Below, one piece after another: positions 6,511 through 56,283 of a stretch of 64,000 nt of DNA. How positions within the stretch are numbered: position 1 is the stretch's first letter; each line of letters opens with the position of its first letter. The translations under genes and the position numbers were made by a program. The notes under the pieces are model-generated. The model was not told the origin of the DNA. It saw only the letters and a program-made list of their open reading frames with translations, and ran no database searches. The DNA is taken from positions 23,982-87,981 of the forward strand of contig JAUYIW010000067.1 of the NCBI GenBank assembly GCA_030688135.1. The letters run 5' to 3'. This stretch comes from Candidatus Uhrbacteria bacterium (GTDB lineage Bacteria; Patescibacteriota; Patescibacteriia; UBA9934).

Positions 6511-6669
6511 GTGGCTTACCCTCCTTGTTTCGCCGTCGGCTAACCTTACACCCTGAACTTACAGGAGTCTGACTGACCAGTTTGTTAAATACGGCTCTTT
6601 GAAGTCGATAAACTACAAAAAGCCATATTCAACATTAAAACTTGGTATTATTATATTAATGAACAAGGC

Positions 6670-21830: not shown

Positions 21831-22090
21831 AAGAACATTCAAAATGTTAAAGTCGATCAGATTAATTTTGACGATTAAAATAGAATCACCAGACCCGCCT
21901 TGTCATTACGAAGAGGCCGTTTTTCGTGACGAAGTAATCTATCTTTTCTGCCATCCTGAGGAGCTCGTAATGGATCATACGCAATTTGGGTGGAGAATGC
22001 ATAGAGGCCAAAGGTTAGCTCAACCGGTAAAAACAGCGAATCTCTTGCTTTCTACCATCTCGAACCCGACTTAACTTTCTGCTGTCGGGC

Positions 22091-22200
22091 GAGAGATCTT
22101 TCGAACCCCACCATCTCGAGGAGCTTGCAATCCACGACGAGAGATCTTTCGAACCCCACCATCTCGAGGAGCTTGCAATCCACGACGAGAGATCTTTCGC
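22091..22200. repeat. 48-bp tandem repeat, about 2.3 copies
   Basis: The unit GAGAGATCTTTCGAACCCCACCATCTCGAGGAGCTTGCAATCCACGAC is repeated head-to-tail. Confidence 0.8.
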
Positions 22201-22359: not shown

Positions 22360-22780
22360 GATCTCTCAGTCGCTTTGCTCCTTCGAGATGGTAAAGTGCG
22401 AAAAAATTGCTTTGTCGTAAACCGCGAGCTCCTAGTAATGCGTATTTTGTCTTTGCGAGGAATCTACTTATCGTGACGAAGCAAACTCTTCGGTTAGAGT
22501 GCAGAAAGATTGCTTCGGACCGAACTGCATAGTCCTCGCAATGACGAAAAAGATCTCTCAGTCGCTTCGCTCCTTCGAGATGGTAAAGTGCGAAAAAATT
22601 GCTTTGTCGTAAACCGCGAGCTCCTAGTAATGCGTATTTTGTCTTTGCGAGGAACCTGCTTATCGTGACGAAGCAAACTCTTTGGTTAGAGTTCAGAAAG
22701 ATTGCTTCGGACCGAACTGCATAGTCCTCGCAATGACGAAAAAGATCTCTCAGTCACTTTGCTCCTTCGAGATGGTGAGA
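22360..22780. repeat. 192-bp tandem repeat, about 2.2 copies
   Basis: Unit starts at 22360, 22552 and 22744 are near-identical (GATCTCTCAGTCGCTTTGCTCCTTCGAGATGGTAAAGTGCG...). They share the core GATCTCTCAGTCG..CTCCTTCGAGATGG with the MITE-like family C. Confidence 0.8.
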
Positions 22781-24787: not shown

Positions 24788-24883
24788 AATCTTGTACTAG
24801 TATAGCACGAGAAATCTTAAATTTAAAATCATAAATCCTAAATAAATATGAGTGCCGTCTCTGACTTATTCCTTTTATTCCCC

Positions 24884-25010
24884 TGAATTACGAAACTCGA
24901 TGAGATTTGCGTGAACGGGCTGTCGATCCCGGTGAACCCTACTAAAACGTAGGGAGAACAGGGGCGACGGGCGCCCATGAACGCAAAGATCGCGAGTTTC
25001 GTAATTCAAG
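24884..25010. repeat. GC-rich ~130-bp structured element with terminal inverted repeats, family A copy 1
   Basis: CTGAATTACGAAACTCG...GCGTGAACGGGCTGTCGATCCCGGTGAACCCTACTAAAACGTAGGGAGAA..GGGGCGACGGGCGCCC.TGAACGCAAAGATCGCGAGTTTCGTAATTCAAG. Confidence 0.7.
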
Positions 25011-25012
25011 AT

Positions 25013-26245
25013 TTATTCGTATCTCAATGCCTCGATAGGGTCGAGCTTAGCAGCCCTACGTGCAGGATAGATTCCAAAAACTACACCAACAGTAGTAGCT
25101 ACAAATACTCCAAGAAAAACTGCGCTAATAGGAACCGTTGGCTCCCAGCCATCAAGATAATATCCTACTGCATAACTTGCTACAACTGAAAACACAACAC
25201 CAAGCACTACCCCAATGATTCCTCCAAACATAGTCAGAAGCACAGCCTCGAGTAAAAACTGCTGTAAAATCTCCTTGTACGTGGCGCCAACAGATTTACG
25301 CAAACCAATTTCTTTTGTACGCTCCGTTACAGAAACTAACATGATATTCATGATTCCAATTCCACCAACGACAAGCGAAATAGCAGCGATTGAAACTAAA
25401 AGCAAAGATAACACCGAACCAACAACGCCAATAATTTCAACAGCATCACTTTGAGACGAAACAAAGAAGTCATCTTTTTCAGGAACGCCTTCAGGATTGT
25501 CTAAATTGTGAGTATCACGAAGTGTGAAGCGCGCTTCATCCTTAGCGTTATCGATGTCTCCAATAGCCCTGGCTGAAATATACGTAACATGGTCCACTCC
25601 AAAAATATCTCTTTGCGCAGTTGTGATAGGTACCGCAATCTGTGTATCGAGATTTTGAAAAAATCTAGTACCCTGCTCTGGGAAGACCCCAATAACGCGC
25701 AGGCTCGTGCTTTTAATTTTTATGCGCTCACCAATAGGGTCCTGGTCACCAAATAAATCCACAGCAATCTCGCTACCAAGAACTGCTACCCGCGCATAAG
25801 AACCAACGTCAGATTCATCTAAAAATCTACCATTTAGAACTTCCGAAGGGAAAACATCAATGTATCCCTCTGTTGTTCCTATTACTTGTGTAAAAGTGCT
25901 TTCCTGCTCACGGCTTACTGTTGAAGTTGACTGCAAGATTGGAGTTATAGAAGAGAACACAGCTACTTTTTCCAGTGCATCAACGTCGTCTATATCGAGT
26001 GACCGCTCGATGAATGGATCTGGCGGACCAGCGGTTGGATCGCCAGCAGCAGGTTCAATAAAAACTAAATCAGCACCAAGATCAGCGACTTGATTCAAGA
26101 TTAGTCCTTCGGCGCTACGTCCCACAGAAAACATTATAATAACAGCAGCTATGCCAATAACAATCCCAAGAATAGTTAAAATTGACCGAGATTTATTGGT
26201 CTTAAGAGATGTTGATGAAGTTTCGAGTAAGTCAGACCATTTCAT
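25013..26245 (-). CDS. ABC transporter permease (FtsX/MacB family)
   Basis: N-terminal TM segment, large extracytoplasmic domain, C-terminal FtsX 4-TM domain. 410 aa. Confidence 0.8.
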   Translation of the reverse strand: MKWSDLLETSSTSLKTNKSRSILTILGIVIGIAAVIIMFSVGRSAEGLILNQVADLGADLVFIEPAAGDPTAGPPDPFIERSLDIDDVDALEKVAVFSSITPILQSTSTVSREQESTFTQVIGTTEGYIDVFPSEVLNGRFLDESDVGSYARVAVLGSEIAVDLFGDQDPIGERIKIKSTSLRVIGVFPEQGTRFFQNLDTQIAVPITTAQRDIFGVDHVTYISARAIGDIDNAKDEARFTLRDTHNLDNPEGVPEKDDFFVSSQSDAVEIIGVVGSVLSLLLVSIAAISLVVGGIGIMNIMLVSVTERTKEIGLRKSVGATYKEILQQFLLEAVLLTMFGGIIGVVLGVVFSVVASYAVGYYLDGWEPTVPISAVFLGVFVATTVGVVFGIYPARRAAKLDPIEALRYE

Positions 26246-26344
26246 AGGTGTGCGTCACAGAACTACAGACTATACAGAGCTACGGACTGACTGCCACAAT
26301 AAGTTAGTAAGTCTATAAGCCTTGTAGGCCTGTAACCAAATTTA

Positions 26345-27073
26345 TTATTTTGCAAATTTATGTGTCCTGCGCCTGCTAACAGCTTCATCTGAAACAATAT
26401 TTCCATCTCGAACTCTAACAATGCGTTTCGCAAACTCCGCAGCTTCTTGTTCATGAGTTACCATAATCACAGTATGACCTGCTTCATTCAAATTTTGAAA
26501 AATCTGTAAAATCTCAAGTCCAGATTGAGTATCTAGATTTCCAGTTGGTTCATCTGCAAAAATAATTGATGGATTATTTACAAGTGCCCTAGCGATTGCA
26601 ACACGCTGACGCTCGCCACCAGAGATTTGATTAGCAATGTGTTCTGTACGATGTCCCAACCCAACGTTTTCCAATGCCTTCTTAGCGCGCGCTATACGCT
26701 CTGGACGCGGAACTTCGGCATAGAGCATAGGAAGCATAGTGTTTTCAAGAACCGTAGTGTTAGAGATAAGATTAAAAAACTGAAATACAAATCCTACTTC
26801 GTCTCTTCGAAGATATGCTAATTCGTTGTCGCCTAATTCCGACACATCCTTACCTTTAAACCTATAGCTACCAGATGTCAGGCGATCTAGAAACCCAAGT
26901 ATATGCATAATTGTTGACTTACCTGATCCCGAAGGTCCCATAAGCGCAACAAATTCACCTTCCTCTATATCAAGAGTGACACCGTGAAGAACCGGCGTCA
27001 CTACTTCTCCATTAACATATTTTTTGGTCACGTCCTTTAATTCAATCAACGTGTTTGCCATACTAATAAACAA
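26345..27073 (-). CDS. ABC transporter ATP-binding protein (MacB/LolD-like)
   Basis: Walker A (GPSGSGKST), ABC signature (LSGGERQRVAIARAL) and Walker B (IIFADEPT). Confidence 0.88.
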   Translation of the reverse strand: MFISMANTLIELKDVTKKYVNGEVVTPVLHGVTLDIEEGEFVALMGPSGSGKSTIMHILGFLDRLTSGSYRFKGKDVSELGDNELAYLRRDEVGFVFQFFNLISNTTVLENTMLPMLYAEVPRPERIARAKKALENVGLGHRTEHIANQISGGERQRVAIARALVNNPSIIFADEPTGNLDTQSGLEILQIFQNLNEAGHTVIMVTHEQEAAEFAKRIVRVRDGNIVSDEAVSRRRTHKFAK

Positions 27074-27095
27074 TTACCAAAAGTGATTCCCGGTA

Positions 27096-28928
27096 TTAAC
27101 GAACCGTCACAATTATATCCTCCCCTTCTATAAGACCTGAAATAATTTCCACCTTTCCTTCGTCTGCTTTAAGTCCAATGTCGACTACTACTTCATCATA
27201 ATTATTTCCACGAGGAGTCCGAACATAGCGAACACCATCGCTCTCCAATACTGACCTACGAGGAACAAACAATACGTCTGCAACTTGCTCAGTTGTAATA
27301 GTAACGTCGGCCGACATTCCAGGCTTTAGTTCAAGAGGAGGGTTATCTTCTGCAAAGAAGATTCCAACTTCATAGAACACAACACCTTCAACTTTTGTTT
27401 CAGCTGGATCGATCGTTCCTACAAATCCATCAAATGATATATATTCACCAAAAGCATCGAATGTAATTGTTGCAGGATCATTTAGCGAGACCTTTGCTAT
27501 GTCAGATTCGGAAACGTCGAGCACAACCTGAAATTCATCTTCAATTGTTTGCACTGTAATGACTGACGTCGCCGGAGATGCCTGCTCGCCAATTTCGATT
27601 TCAATATTTGTTACCTTACCGTTAATTGGAGAAACAATCTCTGCCTTTGCCAAACGAGCATACGCTGCATCTAGATCGGCCTGCGACCTTCTGACATCTG
27701 CCTGATAGGCTGCTAAATCAACAGCGCGAGGATCAGCGATAAGATCGCCAAGTGTTGCTTGTGCCTTTGTAAGCGAAGCTTCTGCTTGCTCGAATGCCGC
27801 GAGCGAAGCTGCAACTTGGCTAGCTTCGGAGGCCTCAGCTTTGATTAAATCCTGTTCAGATTTTGCTAAATTGTTGCGTGCGTTATCTTCTGCGACATTG
27901 GTATCGATAATTGCATTTGCATACGATTGACGAGCGAGGAAAAATGAAGCCTCTTCATTCTGAATTTGCGTACGAGCAGAATTGATCGTAGTTTTTAGTG
28001 CCAATAAATCAGTTATTGAAAAATCAGCATCTTCTAAAATTGTCGCATCGAGAGCTTGATGAGTATAAAGAAGTGCAAGCGCCGAATCTTCAAGAGCTGT
28101 TTCAAGAAATTCAGCCGCTGCGTTAACATCAGTATCATCGGAATCTGCGCTTAACACAAAAACCGCATCCTCTGCAATGTCCCGACTAGCGCGAGCAAAG
28201 CCAAAATATCTGTTCGCGTGATATAAAGTAGAAGGATCAGCTGACGCAAGCATATCGAAAAAATCAATATTCAAGAGTCCATTTTCGATTCCTAAAACTT
28301 GATCAGCTTCGGAAAGTCCTGCGCGTATCTCTATCGTTGCCGACTTCATTGCGTTTACATAATCTTCCTTAGTGTCAGATAAATCTTGAATGTTTGAAGC
28401 AAGCACGTTAGCTAAGTCATCTTCTTTAGTATCAAGTGCAATTTCTGCAATTCGCACTGTTGCTGCCTCTGTTGCTTGAATGTGAGTGTAATCTGATTCT
28501 GCGGCAGAGAGCGCAACTTCTGCAATAGTGATGTCTGCCATTTTTACAGCAATAGCTTCTGAACCTGCTCCGGCTAATTCGAGATTTAGATTAGCATGAG
28601 CAATATCTAGCGCCTGCTCTGCCTGCCTAGCCTGAGCTCCGAGTTCATCAGCCTCCAAAACTGCCAAGTAATCTCCTATCGCAACCTCATCGCCGACATC
28701 TACAAAGATCTCTTCTACATTACCGGAAATTTGAAAAGATAGTTCAACTTTATCAAGCGATTCCAATTCTCCAGTTGCCTCAACTGTTTGTATTAGATTT
28801 CCACGAGTAACTTTATCTAGTACAAACTCTTGACCGCTCCCCTGTCTAGTTAGAACAAAAATTGCAATCACAACAATTATAACAATCACGCCAGTAACCG
28901 ATAGCCATAGCTTTTTAGGTAATTTCAT
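27096..28928 (-). CDS. HlyD/MacA-family membrane fusion (periplasmic adaptor) protein with extended coiled-coil
   Basis: N-terminal TM anchor. Biotinyl-lipoyl-like half-barrel (GDEVAIGDYLAVLEADE). Very long Ala/Glu/Gln-rich coiled coil. C-terminal beta-barrel. It is the operon partner of the two ABC genes. Confidence 0.7.
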   Translation of the reverse strand: MKLPKKLWLSVTGVIVIIVVIAIFVLTRQGSGQEFVLDKVTRGNLIQTVEATGELESLDKVELSFQISGNVEEIFVDVGDEVAIGDYLAVLEADELGAQARQAEQALDIAHANLNLELAGAGSEAIAVKMADITIAEVALSAAESDYTHIQATEAATVRIAEIALDTKEDDLANVLASNIQDLSDTKEDYVNAMKSATIEIRAGLSEADQVLGIENGLLNIDFFDMLASADPSTLYHANRYFGFARASRDIAEDAVFVLSADSDDTDVNAAAEFLETALEDSALALLYTHQALDATILEDADFSITDLLALKTTINSARTQIQNEEASFFLARQSYANAIIDTNVAEDNARNNLAKSEQDLIKAEASEASQVAASLAAFEQAEASLTKAQATLGDLIADPRAVDLAAYQADVRRSQADLDAAYARLAKAEIVSPINGKVTNIEIEIGEQASPATSVITVQTIEDEFQVVLDVSESDIAKVSLNDPATITFDAFGEYISFDGFVGTIDPAETKVEGVVFYEVGIFFAEDNPPLELKPGMSADVTITTEQVADVLFVPRRSVLESDGVRYVRTPRGNNYDEVVVDIGLKADEGKVEIISGLIEGEDIIVTVR

Positions 28929-29012
28929 AACGCAGGCACAGTATCACTAATTTGCTATATTGAAAAGAGTATATAGGTACCATAATTAGACCTTGGACAC
29001 TCTTCGAATACA

Positions 29013-29062
29013 AAAAAACGTCTCAAAAAGAGATGTTTTTTTTGGTTGCGGGGATCGAATTT
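29013..29062 (-). repeat. duplicated terminator hairpin plus truncated tRNA-Met 3' end
   Basis: AAAAAACGTCTCAAAAAGAGATGTTTTTTT followed by TGGTTGCGGGGATCGAATT duplicates 29199-29246 (the terminator plus 3' end of the tRNA-Met). The region between the copies (29060-29190) has no complete cloverleaf. Confidence 0.55.
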
Positions 29063-29198
29063 TCACATCGCTCACCTTAGTTCGCTCTCCATAAGGGCTT
29101 CCGCCCCTCTGGCGGCCAGCTAAGCTGGCCTGTCACCCCCATTAAGTAAGTGGGACATTCCCCCTTACCATCCCCCTGGTTCAAATCCTTCAAAAACA

Positions 29199-29227
29199 AA
29201 AAAACGTCTCTAAAAGAGATGTTTTTT
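29199..29227 (-). terminator. rho-independent terminator downstream of tRNA-Met (minus strand)
   Basis: ACGTCTCTAAAAGAGATGT hairpin flanked by A/T runs. Confidence 0.55.
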
Positions 29228-29304
<77 letters not shown>

Positions 29305-29349
29305 GGACGATAATACTTAAAAGCGACTATATTGTCAAGTTTATGCCTG

Positions 29350-29497
29350 ATATCGAGACTGTTCTAATACTCTTTTTTCCATCTCGAAGGAGTCTTCGAC
29401 TGAGAGATCTTTCGTGCTTCCTAAGGATTTCTCATCGGCCGGTTCAACGGGCCTTTCCGAAATAGTGAGATTTTAAGTATTAGAACTGTCTCGATAT
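29350..29497 (+). repeat. MITE-like element, family C copy a (about 140 bp with terminal inverted repeats)
   Basis: It begins ATATCGAGACTGTTCTAATACT and ends AGTATTAGAACTGTCTCGATAT. The interior shares CCATCTCGAAGGAG..CGACTGAGAGATC with the tandem repeats at 22.1-22.8 kb. Confidence 0.7.
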
Positions 29498-29544
29498 CTA
29501 TTGACTAAAAATCATTTTTTTGGTATAGTTCCCCCACAATTTAA

Positions 29545-29631
29545 GTCGCGGTGGCGGAACTGGCAGACGCGCAGGACTCAAAATCCTGTGGTGGCAACAC
29601 CGTGAGGGTTCGATTCCCTCCCGCGGCACCA
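29545..29631 (+). tRNA. tRNA-Leu (anticodon CAA)
   Basis: 87-nt class II tRNA. Acceptor GTCGCGG/CCGCGGC. Anticodon stem CAGGA/TCCTG with loop CTCAAAA. Long variable arm. T-arm GAGGG-TTCGATT-CCCTC. Encoded CCA. Confidence 0.8.
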
Positions 29632-29827
29632 TAATTACAAACCGAAGTTTCTAAATTAATGATTGAAGCCAGGGCTATGCAGTTTGAGACTAGTTTAAAT
29701 AATGAGCCAGAACGTTCTAAATTGGATGAAGTTTTGATGCGCTGCGAGCACCGCAAAAAGACGTACTAAATGTACGTCGTTGAGGAGCGGAGCAGTAAAT
29801 CAAAAATTCGCCGATTTAGGACGTTAT

Positions 29828-29904
29828 GGCTGGGTAGCTCAGTCGGTTAGAGCGAAGGACTCATAAGCCTTAGGTCGTGGGTTCGATTCCCACCCCAGCC
29901 ACCA
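29828..29904 (+). tRNA. tRNA-Met (anticodon CAT), elongator-type (or tRNA-Ile2 if lysidinylated)
   Basis: 77 nt. Acceptor GGCTGGG/CCCAGCC. D-arm GCTC-AGTCGGTTA-GAGC. Anticodon loop CTCATAA. T-arm GTGGG-TTCGATT-CCCAC. Encoded CCA. One A-G mismatch closes the anticodon stem. Confidence 0.75.
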
Positions 29905-30034
29905 AAATGACCACTTCGAAAGAAGCGGTCATTTTGTTACAAGCAAGCCAACTGCTTGGCTTGCGAAGTAATCAAGCACACAACCTAAAGGAGATGTGGA
30001 GGAAAGTATTTCCCTCACTTTTCCTAAAAAATAA

Positions 30035-30601
30035 CTATAAAACCAGCCGGCTACGACTCTTCCCACTCGCCTCCCATTCCGCCTTGAATCTTACCTTTTC
30101 TTCTATAGGGATTTTGTTGTTGTATAGATTTAGCACAGTAACTCCATCCGGAATATTCTCAATCTTTGGGATTTGGTTTTTGGATAGATTTAGCCTTGTG
30201 ACTCCTTCTATGCGTTTAAAGAATGGTGGTATCAACTCTATTCCTTCGCCATAAAGATCTAGCTCGGCATTAAGCGAAATAATCTCGCCGTATTCGGTGA
30301 ACTCAAAAAGCTCTTCTACCATTTCTTTGTTTAGGCCAATATCTTCAAAATATGCAGTAACCTCTACGCGCGTTAGTTTTTCTTTTATATTTTCCGCTTC
30401 TACAGCGCGTATTGCTTCCATTTCTTCCTCTGTAAACCGATGTTCCGGAATCGGCTCTTCCGCCTTTTTGGCAGTTTTACCGGACAAACGCCTCATTTCC
30501 GCTTCAGGTCCCAAAACACTACCAATAAAAGCAGCATCGTCAGGGTTTAGCTTCCTAGGTTCCTTAAATGGGTTTTCTAATGATTGTGGCATATACACCA
30601 T
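30035..30601 (-). CDS. small leucine-rich-repeat (LRR) protein
   Basis: The C-terminal half contains tandem LxxLxLxxNxI-type repeats (LNLSKNQIPKIENIPDGVTVLNLYNNKIP). 188 aa. The N-terminal part is acidic. Confidence 0.5.
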   Translation of the reverse strand: MVYMPQSLENPFKEPRKLNPDDAAFIGSVLGPEAEMRRLSGKTAKKAEEPIPEHRFTEEEMEAIRAVEAENIKEKLTRVEVTAYFEDIGLNKEMVEELFEFTEYGEIISLNAELDLYGEGIELIPPFFKRIEGVTRLNLSKNQIPKIENIPDGVTVLNLYNNKIPIEEKVRFKAEWEASGKSRSRLVL

Positions 30602-30846
30602 CTTACCTTATTTTAATACTATTTGTCATTACTACTTACATTGCAATCGTAAAGTAAAAATACTTTGTACTATGGCCTAAAAGCAATATGATCATATTAA
30701 ACAAGATAATTGCAATACTACGCAGAATAGTCTATTAAATGCTCCTTATTGGCGATATCACCTATGTGCGTATACCTAGGTTATATTTTAGATCCATTAA
30801 TAAACCACCCTTTAGCCTACCGCGAATTAGTGTGGTTTCCATTGCG

Positions 30847-30985
30847 CGAGACCGTTCTAATACTTAAAATCTCACCATTTCGAGGAGGTCTATTATATCG
30901 GCCGACGAGAAATCTTTAGAAGGCACGAAAGATCTCTCAGTCGAAGACTCTTTCGAGATGGGAAAAAGGAGTATTAGAACGGTCG
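30847..30985 (-). repeat. MITE-like element, family C copy b (inverted relative to copy a)
   Basis: CGAGACCGTTCTAATACT...AGTATTAGAACGGTCG. The interior is approximately the reverse complement of copy a. Confidence 0.7.
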
Positions 30986-31036
30986 GACTAGGGCGCCTTT
31001 GTTTTTCGATACTTTAGTGCTATACTATTATCAATT

Positions 31037-31498
31037 ATGACCATAACAACTCACACAGCAATCGGTGCGGCAATCGGATTCAGTGTTGGAAATCCTTACC
31101 TTGGATTTGGGCTTGGTCTTATCTCTCATCTACTGGTTGATATGATTCCGCATGGAGATAGTTTGATTGCGGAAGAATTTCGTATACATAAAAAAAGGAA
31201 AAGGGCATTCAGACTTGGTACAACAGACGCGCTATTCGCACTCCTTCTTGCACTATTCATATTCAATCTTCCGCACGTTACATCAACAATGACAGTTTCT
31301 CTAGCAATTGCAGGAAGTATTTTTCCCGACCTTATCGTTGGCCTGCATGACGCAACAAAAAGTAAGTATCTGAAAAGAGCGGTAAAAGTTCATTGGTTTT
31401 TTCATGACTTTTTTATCAAGCGCTATCACGACGTAAAGCTAACTAACAGCTTACTATTGCAGGCTGGGCTCGTGGCCATAATCATGAATATACTGTAA
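31037..31498 (+). CDS. membrane protein, possibly YdjM/DUF457-like metal-dependent hydrolase
   Basis: Multiple TM helices. The His-containing motif LLVDMIPHGD is reminiscent of the YdjM family. This is a weak assignment. Confidence 0.35.
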   Translation: MTITTHTAIGAAIGFSVGNPYLGFGLGLISHLLVDMIPHGDSLIAEEFRIHKKRKRAFRLGTTDALFALLLALFIFNLPHVTSTMTVSLAIAGSIFPDLIVGLHDATKSKYLKRAVKVHWFFHDFFIKRYHDVKLTNSLLLQAGLVAIIMNIL

Positions 31499-31549
31499 AT
31501 AAAAATCGAGATAATGACCTAGTCAAATACTCGATATCGTTTTCAACGG

Positions 31550-32056
31550 TTAAAATAAAATATCTGCGCTCAGGCTTACTGAAGAAACAATAATACCGGC
31601 AACAATGATTCCAAGTAACTCACCTATTAGCGCATAACGAACCGGAACTTTCAGCGCTACCGCTGCAAGCGTTGCAGTCCAAAGACCGGTAAACGGTAAA
31701 GGCAGTGCTGTAAATAGAAAAAGTGCAAGTGCTCCATAACGGGCATATTTTTCTTTTACCCTACCCTCTGCTCTATCGATTGATGAATCAATTAGACGTG
31801 TTAGGGAAGGCAAATACTTTGCAGTAACCCTACGAAGAGAATTTAGTCCGTAATATAGTGGGAAAAATGGTAGAAAATTTCCAATGATTGCGAGCCCAAA
31901 AGCGTTCAATGGATTAATTGTCCAAATATACACGGCAACAGGAATAGCAAGCCTAAGTTCTCCAACAGGCGTAGCCGCAAGTAAGATAGTTGCAAGCCAT
32001 GTTGGGAACTGACCTAAAAAATTTATGATGGTGTCTAACATAATGCCAAATTTCAA
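31550..32056 (-). CDS. hypothetical polytopic membrane protein
   Basis: 168 aa with 4-5 predicted TM helices. No diagnostic motif. Confidence 0.45.
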   Translation of the reverse strand: MKFGIMLDTIINFLGQFPTWLATILLAATPVGELRLAIPVAVYIWTINPLNAFGLAIIGNFLPFFPLYYGLNSLRRVTAKYLPSLTRLIDSSIDRAEGRVKEKYARYGALALFLFTALPLPFTGLWTATLAAVALKVPVRYALIGELLGIIVAGIIVSSVSLSADILF

Positions 32057-32108
32057 AATCCAAATATCAAATATTTTTGATTTGACATTTGAGCTTTGAC
32101 ATTAGTCA

Positions 32109-33089
32109 TTACTCCCCCGGCCACTTGTATACTTTAAACGCCCAACTAGCAAGACCCTTGGCTTCTTGAACTCGAGTGTCCTTTGATTCTGAGCCCATAA
32201 CAATCACATAAATTTTGTCACTGCCTTTTTCTATACTACTCACGAGAACATAGCCTGCTTGTGGCAAATATCCAGTTTTGCCACCCGCTATATCAAACTC
32301 TCCGGTGTTTAGAAAACTTTCTAGTAACAAGTTGGTATTTTCAATTGTAACCGAGCGTCCGCTTAAGTGCTGAACAGTTATAACCGACGTTGTCATAAAC
32401 TTTTGGATTGTCGCCACATCTTCGGCCGCACGAAGCAGCTTTACTAAATCCCAAGCTGTAGACATGTTTGTTGAATCGATTCCGGTCGGATCGGTAAAGG
32501 TCGAATTCTTCATACCCAATTCTTCTGCCTTTGAATTCATCCTTGCAATAAATTCCTCGCGCGTTAACCCTGAAAATCGCATAAGCGCCTCGGTTGCCGT
32601 ATTGTCAGAACCAACAAGGCTTGCAGCAAGAACATCTTCTAATTCTATGCCATCGTAAAATGCAAGATAAACTCTTCCTCCTTCTATCAAATCAAGCGTT
32701 GGATCTAGGGTTACTATCTGGTTCATATCCGGATCAGCTTCTAAAAATACTAAAGCGCTCATCAACTTTGTAACGCTACCGATTGAGCGTACCTGATACG
32801 GATGCTTACCTAGCAATATCATTCCGCTCTCAGCATCGACTACCAACGCGCTCTGTGCCGTTGTTACAATTCCGTATGAATCTGAATCAACCTTTATAGG
32901 ATAATCTTCAGGATGTCTATCCCCTGCTACGGGCAAGCTTACACCATACGCAGAGAGAGTCTCCGTTTCAAAAAAATCTATTGGCTCACCCGCAACCCCT
33001 GCCTGCCATTCAAAATAAGAAGCATCCGCTGGAATAAGCTGAGTAAATACTGTGGCTATAACTAATTGTCCAACAAGTTTTAGAATCAT
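32109..33089 (-). CDS. D-alanyl-D-alanine carboxypeptidase (serine-type, PBP5/DacA-like)
   Basis: SxxK (GSVTKLM), SxN (SDNTATE) and KTG (GKTGY) motifs are present in the correct order, with an N-terminal signal/TM segment. Confidence 0.8.
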   Translation of the reverse strand: MILKLVGQLVIATVFTQLIPADASYFEWQAGVAGEPIDFFETETLSAYGVSLPVAGDRHPEDYPIKVDSDSYGIVTTAQSALVVDAESGMILLGKHPYQVRSIGSVTKLMSALVFLEADPDMNQIVTLDPTLDLIEGGRVYLAFYDGIELEDVLAASLVGSDNTATEALMRFSGLTREEFIARMNSKAEELGMKNSTFTDPTGIDSTNMSTAWDLVKLLRAAEDVATIQKFMTTSVITVQHLSGRSVTIENTNLLLESFLNTGEFDIAGGKTGYLPQAGYVLVSSIEKGSDKIYVIVMGSESKDTRVQEAKGLASWAFKVYKWPGE

Positions 33090-33116
33090 AATGACAAAGG
33101 GTAAGATGTAACAGAA

Positions 33117-33674
33117 TTACTCTTCCGGTGAATCAAAAACTGTACTTAACATTTCTGTGATCTTTTCATTGCCATTGAACTGCTCGTAATCTGGCAAATC
33201 AACAGCAGAAGAAATCCCAAGATGGCGCATCATCTCCGTTGAGAGTGAGTAGGTCATTTGCAAGCGATCGACATCTTCCTTTTCAACAACTAGTCCTCGC
33301 ATAAGAAGATTGCGCAAAATAATACTGCAATTAACTCCACGAACATGTTCAATTTCTGGCCTAGTAATTGGGCCCCTGTAAGCAATAATTGTTAATGTCT
33401 CAAGCTGAGGTCGCGTAAGCTCTCCTTCCATCTCTTCCTTACTCATCTTTGAAGTTACATCTGTGAAATCAGGATTCGAAGCTAACTCCACAGCAGCCTC
33501 GCCAACTACAACTCTAATCCCTGAATCTAATGAATTCCGAACCTCGGCAAGTTGATTGACATGGCCGTGAACATCTTCCTCTTTTATACCTAATAGCTTA
33601 GCAAGCTTTGAATAAGAAACCGGCCTAGTTGATAGGAATAATACTGCTTCAATTTTTGCTGCGAGCTCGTTCAT
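33117..33674 (-). CDS. scpB: segregation and condensation protein B
   Basis: Tandem winged-helix domains (IEAVLFLSTRPVSYSKLAKLLG; ITRPEIEHVRGVNCSIILRNLLMRGLV). It lies downstream of scpA. Confidence 0.85.
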   Translation of the reverse strand: MNELAAKIEAVLFLSTRPVSYSKLAKLLGIKEEDVHGHVNQLAEVRNSLDSGIRVVVGEAAVELASNPDFTDVTSKMSKEEMEGELTRPQLETLTIIAYRGPITRPEIEHVRGVNCSIILRNLLMRGLVVEKEDVDRLQMTYSLSTEMMRHLGISSAVDLPDYEQFNGNEKITEMLSTVFDSPEE

Positions 33675-33715
33675 AAGTGAATACTGGAGTAAATAGGTAG
33701 TAGACGATGATAAAA

Positions 33716-34411
33716 CTATATGCGTTGGATTGTAATCTCACCACCTTTTTGCTTAGCTGTCACAATTTGCCTGCGCATAAGTTCGAGTAGTGCCAAGAAG
33801 CTTACCACAACTTCCGCTTTGTTAGAAGCGCCAACTATGATGTCTTGGAACTTCATACTTGCCCTTGATTGAATCGCTTTTGTAAGCTCGCTCAACCGTT
33901 CCTCAACAGATTTTATTCGTATGATTGATGCTTTCTGAAGCGCAAAGAATGGCTCTAACTTCTTCATTAGCGATTCAAAAGCCGAATGCAAATTGCTAAT
34001 TGTAACATTTTCAGGCGCATTAAAAGTTGGCTCATTTGACCTTACACGAATAAACGGCCTAGCAAATGAGTGACGCTCTCCGGTATATAACTCCTCTAAC
34101 TTTTCAGCAGAACGAACAAACATTCTGTAAAGCCTTAGCTGATCTTCAAGGCTTGCCACTTCGGTATCCTCTTCTTCGATTCTAAGGTATGGCATTAATT
34201 GGCGACTTTTTAGATAGATGAGACGCGATGCAACTACCAAAAAATCAGCAAGCTCGTTAGTGTTAACTTCATTTTCATCGAGATATTTCAAATATTCGTC
34301 TGCAATACCGGCAAGCGCGACGTCTTTAATCTCAAGCTTTTGTGAGTCCAGTAATTCCAAAAGCAACCCTAATGGGCCTGAATAAGCGGTTTGTTCTACT
34401 TTAAATTCCAT
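33716..34411 (-). CDS. scpA: segregation and condensation protein A (kleisin)
   Basis: N-terminal FSGPLGLLLELL-type motif and C-terminal winged-helix motif (VSFLALLELMRR). Confidence 0.85.
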   Translation of the reverse strand: MEFKVEQTAYSGPLGLLLELLDSQKLEIKDVALAGIADEYLKYLDENEVNTNELADFLVVASRLIYLKSRQLMPYLRIEEEDTEVASLEDQLRLYRMFVRSAEKLEELYTGERHSFARPFIRVRSNEPTFNAPENVTISNLHSAFESLMKKLEPFFALQKASIIRIKSVEERLSELTKAIQSRASMKFQDIIVGASNKAEVVVSFLALLELMRRQIVTAKQKGGEITIQRI

Positions 34412-34553
34412 AAAGCTATTTTAGCATATTTTGGTGTTTTTGTGAGGTGTAAAAATCTAGAAAGTGATAGAATTACAAAACGGTAAAATTTGATACAAGA
34501 TTGAAAAGTCGCCCCAATTTACGCTACTCTCATGCCACAATAACTAACGTTCC

Positions 34554-34736
34554 TTGGGGACTTCAATGAACTTTGAAAAAATTTTGTTTAGAATTGCTAT
34601 AGCTCTTTGCGCCGGATTCGTGTTTGGAGTTTTGCCATTTATGATAGCGGATAGCAACTGGCATGTTAGGGATCCGCTCGGACCATTCGAGATGCCAGAT
34701 CCGCTCCCAGAAGTATGCATGCCAGAAACAGTTTAA
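34554..34736 (+). CDS. small hypothetical membrane peptide (60 aa)
   Basis: One hydrophobic helix (IAIALCAGFVFGVLPFMIA). It is the only ORF in a 400-bp gap. Weakly supported. Confidence 0.2.
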   Translation: MGTSMNFEKILFRIAIALCAGFVFGVLPFMIADSNWHVRDPLGPFEMPDPLPEVCMPETV

Positions 34737-34819
34737 CCAATCGTTACGGCGGGTTCGTTTATCCTGGACTGTAGTACCTACAAAAACTCAATCTGGGCAA
34801 ACGGTGAAGTCTGGATTAC

Positions 34820-34948
34820 CTTGAATTACGAAACTCGCGATCTTTGCGTGAACGGGCTGTCGATCCCCGTGAACCCTACTAAAACGTAGGGAGAATGGGG
34901 GCGACGGGCGCCCGTGAACGCAAAGATCGCGAGTTTCGTAATTCAAAA
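34820..34948. repeat. GC-rich structured element, family A copy 2 (has a perfect 29-bp outer stem)
   Basis: CTTGAATTACGAAACTCGCGATCTTTGCG ... CGCAAAGATCGCGAGTTTCGTAATTCAAG encloses the GTGAACGGGCTGTCGATCCCCGTGAACCCTACTAAAACGTAGGGAGAATGGGGGCGACGGGCGCCCGTGAA core. Confidence 0.7.
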
Positions 34949-35074
34949 GGATTAAGACCTTTGGCAATAGGCCATACAACCCACTCAGCCACTACACTAT
35001 GTCCTTCCCCTATCCGAATCTCGTCGCATACCAGACGCTCCCCCGCGTCGGTTTTTTTCTTTCTATTCTAAGTA

Positions 35075-35090
35075 CCCTTCGCACGAAAGG
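35075..35090. repeat. short palindromic repeat CCCTTCGCACGAAAGG(G) followed by TCCTAAGATT
   Basis: Copies occur at 35075, 35387 and (reverse complement) 56089. The first two bracket the ArsR-family gene. Confidence 0.6.
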
Positions 35091-35114
35091 TCCTAAGATT
35101 AGGAGATTTAAAAA

Positions 35115-35375
35115 TCAAATAATCGACAATAACATAGTGCTTACCGGATTCTGAGTACCCCGAACGCTATACACTACGCCAAAGCCGTTTTGCCAACGAT
35201 CAATAATCCCGGCATCATACAAAATACGTAAATGCTTTGAAGTTGAACGATATGACAAGCCAATTTCTCTAGCAATGTCATCCACAAAAATACATGGATT
35301 CATTTTTAAAATCCGCAATAACGAAAGTCTTCTCTGGCTTGCAAAGGCTTTTAAAATTTTCTCAAGTTGTTCCAT
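35115..35375 (-). CDS. ArsR-family winged-helix transcriptional regulator
   Basis: HTH region RRLSLLRILKMNPCIFVDDIAREIGLSYRSTSKHLRILYDAGII. 86 aa. Confidence 0.6.
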   Translation of the reverse strand: MEQLEKILKAFASQRRLSLLRILKMNPCIFVDDIAREIGLSYRSTSKHLRILYDAGIIDRWQNGFGVVYSVRGTQNPVSTMLLSII

Positions 35376-35386
35376 ATCTTTAGTAC

Positions 35387-35401
35387 CCTTCGCACGAAGG
35401 G
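35387..35401. repeat. short palindromic repeat CCCTTCGCACGAAGGG (copy 2)
   Basis: Same motif as at 35075 and 56089. Confidence 0.6.
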
Positions 35402-35633
35402 ACCGATAGAAATTTACAAAAATAAAACCCCATAAAAAACTTGGGGAGTCTTTTCACGTCCATTTAATTTTCGTTTACATTGAATACTTGATCAGAAACA
35501 ATAATCTAATCTACTTCTATGTTTACACAAAATATAACTCATGTCAAAGCCCTCTGGGGACAACTGTCAAAAAAGGTCGGCACATTGCCGACCTTTTATC
35601 AGGCAGGCGACCATAAAGGTCGCCCCTACACTG

Positions 35634-37031
35634 TTACTTATCAATTTTAATATGAACTTCTTTAAGGGTCTTCTCTGGCAACGCACTCGGCGCATCCATC
35701 ATTAAATCCCGAGCGCTTCCGTCTTTAGGGTATGCAATAACTTCACGAATATTTGGCTCCCCTGCCATTATCATTACAATCCTATCGATACCAGGAGCAA
35801 ATCCTCCATGTGGAGGCGCACCGTATTCAAACGCCTCAAGAATATGACCAAATTTTGCCTGTTGCTCAGCTTCACCAATCTCTAAAAGATCAAAAATTCT
35901 TTTCTGCATGTCCCGCTCATGAATTCTAATCGATCCTGAGCTCAACTCAAATCCATTTAAAACTAGGTCGTAAGCATTAGCGCGAATAGAAAATAAATCT
36001 TCACCATTCATGAGTTTTTCTTTGTCTTCCTCTTTTACAGAACAAAATGGATGATGCACTGCGTCTATTTTACCCTCTTCATTTTTCTCAAACATTGGAA
36101 AATCCAGAATCCAGCAAAATGCTAACTCATTTGGATCGTCCTTGTTTTCTCGCAAGTCAGGCTTATCTGTCCCATACTTCTCCATCGCCTCAGCGTGCGT
36201 AAGACGAGTGAATGGATTTGAAGTAAGTGTCTTATCTGGAAATAACTTTTTAACCAGCTCTAGAAACATCTCTTCTGTGTACTCTAAAATATCTTCCTGT
36301 GTAACAAAAGACATTTCATAATCAAGCTGAGTAAATTCAGGCTGTCTATCTCCACGCTGATCTTCATCGCGGAAACATCTTGCAATTTGGAAATATCTTT
36401 CAAATCCAGCCACCATAGAAAGTTGCTTGAACTGCTGAGGCGACTGTGGTAATACGTAAAATTTACCCTCATGAAGCCTGGATGGAACAATGTACTCGCG
36501 CGAACCCTCGGGAGTTCCCTTCATAAGTATTGGAGTCTCAATCTCAACAAATCCATTTGCATGCATGTACTCGCGAAAGAAAGTAATAATCTTGTCTCGC
36601 ATTCTTATATTTCTTTGCATTCGCTCAGTTCGAAGGTCAAGATACCTGTATTTTAGTCTCAACTCCTCGTTTATAGTCATTGTGTCTTTATCGACTTCAA
36701 ATGGTGGAGTCTTAGCCTCGTTTAAAACCTTAATAGACTTTGCCAAAAGCTCAACTGTGCCAGTAGCAAGGTTTGAATTTATTTGCTTTTCTCCACGAGC
36801 CTGAACTATACCTTCAATTTCCACCACCCACTCCGGCCGAAGGGTTTGCGCAATCGACGTTGCTTCTTCCCCAAGATCTGCCGGAACGCCAACAATTTGC
36901 AACAAGCTATCCTTGTCACGAAGGTCAAAAAACATGATCTTTCCCATATCACGTCGCGCATGAATCCATCCGGCTACTTTTACTGTTTCGCCAACTTTGC
37001 TTACAGTTTCTGAAGTAAATATACGTTTCAT
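35634..37031 (-). CDS. aspS: aspartyl-tRNA synthetase (short bacterial-type, lacking the GAD insertion domain)
   Basis: N-terminal OB anticodon-binding domain. Class II motif 2 QIARCFRDEDQRGDRQPEFTQLD is AspRS-specific. Motif 3 GGFAPGIDRIVM is present. At 465 aa it is about 125 aa shorter than typical bacterial AspRS. Confidence 0.85.
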   Translation of the reverse strand: MKRIFTSETVSKVGETVKVAGWIHARRDMGKIMFFDLRDKDSLLQIVGVPADLGEEATSIAQTLRPEWVVEIEGIVQARGEKQINSNLATGTVELLAKSIKVLNEAKTPPFEVDKDTMTINEELRLKYRYLDLRTERMQRNIRMRDKIITFFREYMHANGFVEIETPILMKGTPEGSREYIVPSRLHEGKFYVLPQSPQQFKQLSMVAGFERYFQIARCFRDEDQRGDRQPEFTQLDYEMSFVTQEDILEYTEEMFLELVKKLFPDKTLTSNPFTRLTHAEAMEKYGTDKPDLRENKDDPNELAFCWILDFPMFEKNEEGKIDAVHHPFCSVKEEDKEKLMNGEDLFSIRANAYDLVLNGFELSSGSIRIHERDMQKRIFDLLEIGEAEQQAKFGHILEAFEYGAPPHGGFAPGIDRIVMIMAGEPNIREVIAYPKDGSARDLMMDAPSALPEKTLKEVHIKIDK

Positions 37032-37106
37032 ATTGATTTTATATTGGAACCGGGCCTCTCGGTTCGTTTGATCATGAATACAGTTTACATTGGGTTGGGT
37101 TTGATA

Positions 37107-37928
37107 TCAAGCGGATTGTTCTGTATTCGCCTGTTCTAATTGCCTCTCCTTATCTTCCAACACTCCGGCCCAAAATGGTACATCTGAATCAACTGGGAGA
37201 TGGAAAACCATTAAATCGTGCACTATGCGAGCATATGCGTCTAAATCATCTGCCAATAACGATGGTTTTAGAAGATCGGGATACCCTGCACCGCGCGCAA
37301 AGCGCAATAACTTTACAACCTCTTCTCGAATTGGCCTGGCAGAAAACCATTCCTCCGGCTTTTCGCTCAAACAATCACTACAAACCAAACCACCCTTATC
37401 GGCATGCCAACGAAAGGAAAGAGGCATTACTTTCTGTTTACATTGAATACAATCATTCAACTGAACGTCATAACCCAAGTGACGCATAATCCGCAATGCA
37501 AAACTACCAAGAATGAAAGTAGCACGAACCGGAGTAACGCTAAACTGAGAATCTACAAACTCTAACCAATCAAGAAGTTCGGCATATAAACATGGGTCAT
37601 AATCATGTTCGCGCGTGTGTTTATTAAGAAGCGACAAAGATGTCTGGATTAGCAATCGCTTATCAAGCGATTCTCTAATATTTGCAAAACCTTTTATACG
37701 CTCAACAGAAATAACAGTGGTAGAGCGTTTACCGCGTACGATTTCAATGTCAACGATTGCAAAAGGCTCTAAGTGTGCGGCGAGCTTAGCCTTACCCTTA
37801 CGCGCTCCACGACCAAGAAAACTCACCTTACCGTTGTCGGGGGTGAGTGCTGTGTACATACGGTCAGCTTCTCGAAATGGTTCAGAAGTCAAAACAATCG
37901 CTTCAGTTTTTAGTGTGGACCAGGACAT
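37107..37928 (-). CDS. recO: DNA repair protein RecO
   Basis: N-terminal OB fold (EAIVLTSEPFREADRMYTALTPDNGKVSFLGRGARK). C-terminal Cys4 zinc motif (CIQC...CSDC). Confidence 0.8.
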   Translation of the reverse strand: MSWSTLKTEAIVLTSEPFREADRMYTALTPDNGKVSFLGRGARKGKAKLAAHLEPFAIVDIEIVRGKRSTTVISVERIKGFANIRESLDKRLLIQTSLSLLNKHTREHDYDPCLYAELLDWLEFVDSQFSVTPVRATFILGSFALRIMRHLGYDVQLNDCIQCKQKVMPLSFRWHADKGGLVCSDCLSEKPEEWFSARPIREEVVKLLRFARGAGYPDLLKPSLLADDLDAYARIVHDLMVFHLPVDSDVPFWAGVLEDKERQLEQANTEQSA

Positions 37929-38074
37929 TGGAGGGATTATTCATTACCTTACAGCCCAGTTTATTATCGATCTGCAGGGTTTATTAAAAATACGACCATT
38001 TATTATTGTACTGCCCTTATATTAATAAACATTCGTCTCCTGCGATAACCCTAGATTCTCATTAATAAACTTAT

Positions 38075-38203
38075 CTTGAATTACGAAACTCGATGAGATT
38101 TGCGTGAACGGGCTGTCGATCCCCGTGAACCCTACTAAAACGTAGGGAGAACGAGGGCGACGGGTGCCCGTGAACGCAAAGATCGCGAGTTTCGTAATTC
38201 AAG
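38075..38203. repeat. GC-rich structured element, family A copy 3
   Basis: CTTGAATTACGAAACTCGATGAGATTTGCGTGAACGGGCTGTCGATCCCCGTGAACCCTACTAAAACGTAGGGAGAACGAGGGCGACGGGTGCCCGTGAACGCAAAGATCGCGAGTTTCGTAATTCAAG. Confidence 0.7.
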
Positions 38204-38230
38204 GAAACTTAAGCTTCTTGTAAATAAACT

Positions 38231-55702: not shown

Positions 55703-56088
55703 AGTTTTAGACAAACATTGATTATGTCGCCATCTTAACGCATCTGTAGAAGGAGTCAAGAGGTGGTAGATTGGCAATGGTAAATTAGCTTTTGGCCACT
55801 TGCCATTAGCTCGTGCAACCCATCCATATATCTGTACTGCAACCTGCCCTGAGCGAAACGATCCTGAGCCTGTTGAAGGAGAGTGAAGTCGAAGGGTATA
55901 TCCGTAACGAAATAAAAAAACTCCAGACTTTGTCAATCTCATGGGGGCGACCTTTAGGTCTCCCGCAAGCGGACGGCATACTGCCACAGGTGACTCGGGC
56001 AGTCCGCCTTCAATGAACAGTGGCGGAAATATCGTCCATACACTTAACTACCATTCACATGTCCTAGAGACGTGAAATCTCTTTAGGA

Positions 56089-56104
56089 CCTTTCGTGCGA
56101 AGGG
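56089..56104. repeat. short palindromic repeat CCTTTCGTGCGAAGGG plus TCCTAAGATT (copy 3)
   Basis: Same family as 35075 and 35387. Confidence 0.6.
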
Positions 56105-56283
56105 TCCTAAGATTGGTAGACGCCTTACTTTTGAGGATGAATGAGAGCAGTAACAAAAAGGCGAGCCTTTCGACCCGCCTTTAAATCTCTATTTAACCCC
56201 CTAACTTCCCTCAAACTCTCTCACATTGCTCGCGTTGGTCGATCTGTAGTTCCGTATAGTCTGTAGGTCTGTAACGATGTACC

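Follow-up and report, generated by a model that had tools for sequence, protein, structure and literature searches.

Miniature inverted-repeat transposable elements, or MITEs, measure less than 500 bp, carry inverted repeats of 4–30 bp and, in young copies, are flanked by direct repeats; their transcripts form stable stem-loops, and in those of type II any similarity to an insertion sequence is confined to the ends (PMC10969869). Here we describe three copies of a small repeat, each 130 or 131 bp long, in a 64,000-nucleotide stretch of Candidatus Uhrbacteria DNA (contig JAUYIW010000067.1, positions 23,982 to 87,981; hereafter the window), which comes from a metagenome-assembled genome (MAG). 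Very probably, these repeats are a MITE belonging to a superfamily that extends across the candidate phyla radiation (CPR, or Patescibacteria), whose members share their ends, duplicate 7 bp of the target and depend on a transposase supplied in trans.

Several described elements resemble this one. The Correia elements (CREE/NEMIS) of Neisseria are likewise non-coding and 100–200 bp long, with terminal inverted repeats of about 26 bp and many intergenic copies. Correia elements duplicate TA, and we know of no cognate transposase for them. In contrast, the window family duplicates 7 bp, places many unrelated interiors on one pair of ends and resides in another phylum. Neighbouring genes and Correia elements share transcripts, in which the elements form stable hairpins that are reported to be cleaved by RNase III at the inverted repeats (PMC10969869). 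Very similar to the window element in size and rod-like fold are the ERIC (IRU) sequences of Enterobacteriaceae and Vibrionaceae, which are imperfect palindromes of about 127 bp in transcribed intergenic regions, with a variable copy number and an orientation that can affect mRNA stability; effects of RNase III or RNase E have been reported for Correia/ERIC-type elements (PMC10969869). ERIC sequences differ from the window element in their termini, host group and target duplication, and they constitute one sequence family rather than families that share only their ends. Correia and ERIC elements are not known to be related in sequence to the window element.

The type II MITEs QMITE2 of Coxiella burnetii and Chunjie of Geobacter share the general MITE definition with the window element. 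QMITE2 is found mainly in 3′ untranslated regions (PMC10969869), and window copies 1 and 3 also lie at the 3′ ends of genes, 0 and 19 bp from the stop codons, respectively. While typical MITEs are AT-rich (PMC10969869), the interior of the window element is 58–60% GC in a genome of 43% GC. The REP/BIME (RAYT) and IS200/IS605-type systems are comparable in that they involve short extragenic palindromes recognised as imperfect hairpins on one strand. The window element is not of either type, because those systems lack a target duplication and such inverted ends.

The three copies in the window

The original prediction for this DNA, made without database searches, described three nearly identical copies that are intergenic, similarly oriented and GC-rich relative to their surroundings, and this description holds. 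Exactly three occurrences of the central 27-mer GTGAACCCTACTAAAACGTAGGGAGAA were counted in the window and none in 100 shuffles, while the 17-mer end CGAGTTTCGTAATTCAA occurs six times at one mismatch or fewer, forming three inverted pairs; no additional or partial copies were found elsewhere within the window. Aligned with one another, the copies are 94–96% identical. All three are on the + strand and their neighbouring genes are all on the − strand. The GC content of the elements (0.52–0.53, rising to 0.58–0.60 in the interior) exceeds that of the 500-bp flanks (0.40–0.42) and of the window as a whole (0.43).

We set the element boundaries as a conserved core (TTGAATT...AATTCAA) plus two further element bases on each side (YY...RR). 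The cores lie at 24883–25009, 34821–34946 and 38076–38202. The loci given initially (24884–25010, 34820–34948 and 38075–38203) were right, but their exact ends are corrected to 24881–25011, 34819–34948 and 38074–38204. The terminal inverted repeats begin YY-TTGAATTACGAAACTCG and are perfect or carry one mismatch, as in the left repeat of copy 1, which starts CTGAATT. Copies 1 and 3 have repeats of 17–18 bp, and in copy 2 the match is perfect over 29 bp; the presence of such repeats had been recognised, with a range of 18–29 bp that now becomes 17–29 bp.

Direct repeats that differ from copy to copy flank all three elements, two nucleotides outside the core. Copy 1 (131 bp, CC + CTGAATTACGAAACTCG ... 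CGAGTTTCGTAATTCAA + GA; 24881–25011, + strand) is situated between an ftsX/macB-like gene (25013–26245) and parA, and its left duplication TTTATTC (24874–24880) is identical to that on the right (25012–25018), at the offset found family-wide. The right duplication includes the final codon and the stop codon (25013–25015, − strand) of the ftsX/macB-like gene; copy 1 is inserted onto this stop codon, and the duplication kept it intact. Copy 2 (130 bp; 34819–34948, + strand) is located between an ArsR-type helix-turn-helix (HTH) gene and scpA, has its perfect 29-bp repeats at 34821–34849 and 34918–34946, and is flanked by GGATTA at 34813–34818 and 34949–34954, with 6 of 7 positions matching. Copy 3 (131 bp, TC + TTGAATTACGAAACTCG ... 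CGAGTTTCGTAATTCAA + GG; 38074–38204, + strand) is found between ruvX and recO with a full 7-bp duplication, AAACTTA, at 38067–38073 and 38205–38211, the latter 19 bp from the ruvX stop codon. The original prediction had proposed a search for TA or TTA duplications: duplications do exist, though they are 7 bp long and variable in sequence, and had gone unnoticed. It had also dismissed the open reading frames (ORFs) inside the element as proteins, rightly, since the element has no coding capacity; the ORFs that cross the hairpin are spurious and reach 70 aa at most.

That the three copies represent a chance resemblance, an assembly artefact or the ordinary segmental duplication of one intergenic hairpin has next to no probability, and this explanation is refuted. 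It has in its favour that the sequence derives from a MAG, and nothing else. Against it, shuffled sequences gave no matches, the element recurs in assemblies made independently from other samples and genomes, and the copies differ from one another in the 7-mer that flanks them and lie among unrelated genes.

Relatives and target sites

We scanned one genome per species (596 Gb) for the exact 17-mer end and recovered at least 102 loci; all family-wide counts below are among the matches listed. A complete element was taken to be two ends, each with no more than three mismatches, in inverted orientation and 90–400 bp apart. At least 78 complete elements of 110–390 bp share the 17-mer end, in at least 40 MAGs. 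Most loci belong to Patescibacteria MAGs and have the 17-mer at one terminus of a small, complete element that carries the inverted copy at the other, and all but one of the MAGs with complete elements are labelled Patescibacteria or unclassified "bacterium." The lineages represented include the Saccharibacteria, Nomurabacteria, Taylorbacteria, Wolfebacteria, Vogelbacteria, Campbellbacteria, Yanofskybacteria, "Parcubacteria group," Paceibacterota, Uhrbacteria, Magasanikbacteria and Doudnabacteria, in addition to unclassified "bacterium." Two complete elements with CPR-type ends (locus L078, 675–888 and 4798–4925) are found in a MAG labelled "uncultured Gammaproteobacteria bacterium," and this contig is either a mis-binned CPR contig or a case of transfer outside the CPR. 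By comparison, the 16 clearly non-CPR loci each contain a lone 17-mer and no complete element, which is as chance predicts, because about 70 random matches are expected arithmetically on the two strands of 596 Gb.

The interiors of the 78 elements fall into at least 25 unrelated types. The largest type comprises 40 elements, among the matches listed, with a typical full length of 140–147 bp. The interior type of the window accounts for six, three of them from a Candidatus Uhrbacteria MAG, and a metagenome scan with the subfamily-specific right end added seven more full copies and one truncated copy. This window subfamily (subfamily A) totals 13 copies, three in the window and 10 from a Uhrbacteria MAG and from metagenomes, which bears out the expectation that further copies exist. 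The genome of the window itself has a fourth, similarly oriented copy about 0.5 kb beyond the left edge of the window (last 26 nt of Logan contig L118). The ends are the sole part common to all subfamilies. Their consensus over 174 ends is (C/T)(T/C)TTGAATTACGAAACTC, the superfamily ends can be written as CTTTGAATTACGAAACTCG, and the motif, paired in inverted orientation, is also given as TTGAATTACGAAAC. Because nothing else is common to all subfamilies, a protein that recognises the ends is indicated.

A GATC motif was observed close to these ends. It is found just within the right inverted repeat (AAAGATCGCG) in all 12 subfamily A copies compared (for example, window 34823–34846 and 34925–34930); 6 of the 12 also have it in the left interior (GTCGATCC), and 11 of the 12 lack it in the left subterminal arm. 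Methylation matters for the ends of IS10 and IS50.

The target-site duplication is a property of the whole superfamily. An exact 7-bp direct repeat is present at offset 2/2 in 27 of the 78 elements, and 37 have a repeat with at most one mismatch, whereas shuffled right flanks yielded a mean of 0.6 and a maximum of three exact 7-bp repeats. When 8 bp are required, the number of exact repeats falls from 27 to six. It follows from these counts that the duplication is 7 bp long and that the element itself ends in YY...RR, most commonly CT...AG. The targets are AT-rich family-wide, roughly T-W-A-W-T-W-A. Within the window subfamily, exact repeats of 6 bp or more flank 10 of the 13 copies, each with a different sequence, examples being TAGATCA, TTATTTT, TGTTTTA, CATTGAG and TCTTGTA. 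With their inverted ends, small size, lack of coding capacity, dispersed copies and 7-bp duplications, the elements conform to the published definition of a MITE (PMC10969869). They are non-coding and below 500 bp, end in terminal inverted repeats, are bounded by direct repeats of fixed length and variable sequence, and have copies at unrelated loci in this and other genomes, so that, of the options initially offered for the repeat, it is the MITE that the data favour.

The history of the window insertions can be approached through related genomes. The RecO encoded in the window matches, at 100% identity, a protein that an NCBI Candidatus Uhrbacteria MAG encodes on a 93.8-kb contig; given this identity and relatives that are all CPR, a cyanobacterial origin and the MITE Nezha, which the base composition had suggested, were rejected. 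A more distant relative (locus L116), with a RecO of 63% identity, has the same gene order, DUF7282-ruvX-recO-asnS-scpA-scpB, and its spacers of 45 bp (ruvX-recO) and 25 bp (asnS-scpA) contain no element, although this genome is too diverged for the target 7-mer to be aligned. A second relative (L115), with 73% RecO identity, has a different insert in the ruvX-recO spacer. These comparisons show that the window insertions are lineage-specific, and the second insert marks the ruvX-recO spacer as a recurrent landing site for different insertions. That insert (L115 3383–4000) is an ORF amid many short AAGCTC/GAGCTT repeats, and from its translation, read by eye, we take it to resemble the four-helix-bundle proteins of 23S rRNA intervening sequences.

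Fold and covariation

Each window copy is predicted to fold into a single long rod hairpin of −69 to −92 kcal/mol with z-scores of −9.8 to −14.8: −69 kcal/mol (z = −9.8) for copy 1, −91.7 kcal/mol (z = −14.8) for copy 2 and −78 kcal/mol (z = −13.3) for copy 3. An alignment of 12 subfamily copies yields a single common rod hairpin with 50 pairs, in which 95.1% of the cells are paired and 11 pairs are altered on both sides. These values were reached in none of 500 shuffles, slid controls gave 30–45% pairing, and the covariation that the original prediction proposed to look for among the copies is therefore present. For example, the inner hairpin CCCTAC/GTAGGG becomes CCCTAT/ATAGGG or ACGTCC/GGACGT in other copies, and three copies have G/C instead of T/A as the outermost pair of the inverted repeat. 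Three tandem G·A internal loops, formed by both arms, are kept in 11, 12 and 10 of the 12 copies, respectively, while the apical loop is not conserved. In 12 of 12 subfamily copies the better fold is that of the purine-bearing strand (in the window, the + strand) rather than of its complement, and in the main family the analogous strand is favoured in 31 of 32 copies. RNA and DNA energy parameters agree on this asymmetry. A Y-shaped fold of its own is conserved in the main family, and 15 of its pairs are altered on both sides.

In several main-family elements, the tips of the inner hairpins carry a 20-bp perfect palindrome, CCTGCCTGCCGGCAGGCAGG (L022 6244–6402, L026 2273–2430 and 2934–3071, and L080 6150–6306, from several MAGs). 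It seems to be a second, still smaller repeat that targets hairpin loops.

These folds bear on the possibility that the repeat is primarily a functional structured RNA that has been multiplied, either a small RNA gene or a cis-acting site for processing, stability or protein binding, with selection acting on the hairpin and its G·A loops. Such an origin would account for the extensive pairing and the pairs altered on both sides in the window subfamily, beyond anything in 500 shuffles, for the equivalent changes in the Y-shaped fold of the main family, for the consistent preference for one strand in both groups, and for the tandem GA/GA loops that persist while the stems vary. Counted by cell, G·U pairs also outnumber A·C pairs by 35 to 8, mostly owing to two fixed wobble pairs; counted by column, however, the departures are equal (8 versus 7). 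No Rfam 15 family or ribozyme model reached its gathering score on the window copies or on five related loci, which leaves the suggestion of a ribozyme or known RNA family unsupported, and at E ≤ 10 the sole Rfam match on the element was a generic hairpin match to the microRNA model mir-708, at 29 bits against a gathering score of 71. A scan for promoter- and terminator-like consensus sequences found nothing in or beside the copies. Relative to co-directional neighbouring genes, 25 elements are antisense and 15 sense (p = 0.15), with subfamily A about evenly divided; the bias in the main family alone (15 to 5) is suggestive, while that over all elements is not significant. The apical loop varies, and the interiors are wholly different between subfamilies, with only the ends in common, so that the ends rather than the fold appear to be under selection. 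Weighing these points, we regard a primarily functional RNA as a distinctly unlikely origin, although in part it would be compatible with a mobile element.

Copy 2 provides a further reason for caution about the covariation. The left arm shared by copies 1 and 3 was originally called a variant; it is indeed shared, but it is the family consensus, found in 11 of 12 copies, and copy 2 is derived. Relative to this consensus, the left arm of copy 2 has one deletion and several substitutions that together make it the exact complement of the right arm, which is the case in none of the other 11 copies. Template-switch correction of quasipalindromes is an established replication-error mechanism, and the left arm of copy 2 carries its signature. 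This multi-base correction at the DNA level can mimic covariation, and since it can also yield an asymmetric fold, the two features alone do not establish a functional RNA.

The strand asymmetry could also be related to the means of transposition. Enzymes that act on single-stranded hairpins, such as those of IS608 and the RAYTs, read strand-asymmetric, mismatched features, and an imperfect hairpin with conserved mismatched loops on one strand is in keeping with movement as folded single-stranded DNA under an HUH/Y1-type enzyme, as in REP/BIME-RAYT or with the IS200/IS605 TnpA. Those systems have no target duplication and no long terminal inverted repeats, whereas the window family has both a variable 7-bp duplication and a terminal inverted repeat of 17–19 bp that is its most conserved part; in addition, no Y1- or RAYT-like gene is enriched in the flanks. 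Movement of this kind is very improbable.

Proposed mobilization

Under the favoured MITE interpretation, a transposase acting in trans would bind the ends of about 19 bp, cut the target with a 7-bp stagger at an AT-rich intergenic site and insert the element, and gap repair would then produce the 7-bp duplication. The enzyme would most likely be of the DDE type, since the length of the duplication is fixed and the ends are inverted; both this chemistry and the supply in trans are presumed. The element would spread selfishly and persist where it is harmless, in gaps between genes of the same direction and just past stop codons. Template-switch "quasipalindrome correction" during replication, of which copy 2 would be an example, may be part of what keeps the two arms complementary, and selection against disruptive structures may contribute. 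By analogy with other bacterial MITEs, a hairpin of −70 to −90 kcal/mol in neighbouring mRNAs could alter RNA processing or stability.

Four observations weigh against this interpretation. First, about 0.9 Mb of loci among the matches listed contained neither an autonomous insertion sequence nor a transposase with these ends, and we consequently infer the mobilising enzyme and the mechanism. Second, the loci were chosen by an exact match to one end, which accounts for part of the conservation that the ends appear to show. Third, a precise empty site, with the same flanks and a single 7-mer, was not recovered from the available relatives, which have 63–73% RecO identity. Finally, one-sided folding and conserved G·A loops with covarying helices are not predicted by a plain MITE model.

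The search for a mobilising partner was negative in other respects as well. Across the loci there were no widely spaced inverted pairs of the end with a duplication, only chance pairs, such as one inside a peroxiredoxin gene. No gene family was enriched in the flanks of the elements among the matches listed, no long repeat was common to the loci, and unpaired ends run into ordinary genes, for example those for EF-Ts and SmpB. Phage and plasmid collections contained no match to the ends among the matches listed, and viral contigs contained one lone chance match. An rve-type transposase by the syntenic region of L115 was considered as a partner and rejected, there being no similar end in that place. 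A missing enzyme is not unusual, however, given that the resemblance of a type II MITE to any insertion sequence stops at the ends.

The near-invariant 19-nt terminal helix, the G·A loops, the covarying helices and the consistently better-folding strand in two independent subfamilies do suggest another, unlikely possibility, that these are CPR-wide hairpins which are mobile and which act as one particular folded single strand of RNA or of DNA. The features would then reflect a strand-specific transposition intermediate handled by a novel enzyme, or an RNA used by the host or by the element. In such a case the transposase may be unrecognised, or it may be encoded outside the CPR cell, in a phage or host bacterium.

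Additional repeats in the window

The HTH gene next to copy 2 is itself associated with repeats. A palindrome of about 22 bp (GGACCTTTCGTGCGAAGGGTCC-like) is found at 35071–35106, 35382–35417 and 56085–56120, and it flanks both sides of the gene, which encodes an 86-aa ArsR-type protein (35115–35375). The same palindrome-flanked HTH arrangement is present in the relative with 73% RecO identity (L115, ~6530–6560 and ~6880), while in the more distant relative (L116) the gene and palindromes are both absent and the asnS-scpA gap is 25 bp. The HTH gene with its palindromes looks like a small inserted gene cassette.

Tandem repeats are found downstream of the parB stop codon (23037), at 22090–22185 and 22360–22776. 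They consist of a 48-bp unit in two copies (100% identical) and a 192-bp unit in two full copies followed by the first 33 bp of a third (97%). A 41-bp repeat that includes a hairpin (AAACGTCTC..GAGATGTTT) and a run of T occurs twice ahead of three tRNA genes (29002–29247 and 29231–29901), its two copies lying 186 bp apart.

Implications

The kind of element described here is known, while the family is apparently undescribed. Open-access full text yielded no paper that contains the end sequence and none that deals with MITEs or insertion sequences in Patescibacteria. Patescibacteria genomes are tiny and streamlined. The CPR/Patescibacteria are not among the taxa listed in a 2024 review of prokaryotic MITEs (PMC10969869).

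The elements have practical consequences for the study of these organisms. Short-read contigs of sample SRR13727534 (L103, L114 and L118) terminate exactly inside copies, from which it follows that the element breaks assemblies; such repeats interrupt short-read CPR assemblies and generate spurious ORF calls. They could also be used as strain-typing markers. The occurrence of one end pair of about 19 bp on at least 25 different elements across CPR lineages implies a shared transposase activity and probably gene flow between lineages, and the elements offer a way to track down the mobilising enzyme in bacteria for which growth in isolation is not yet possible.

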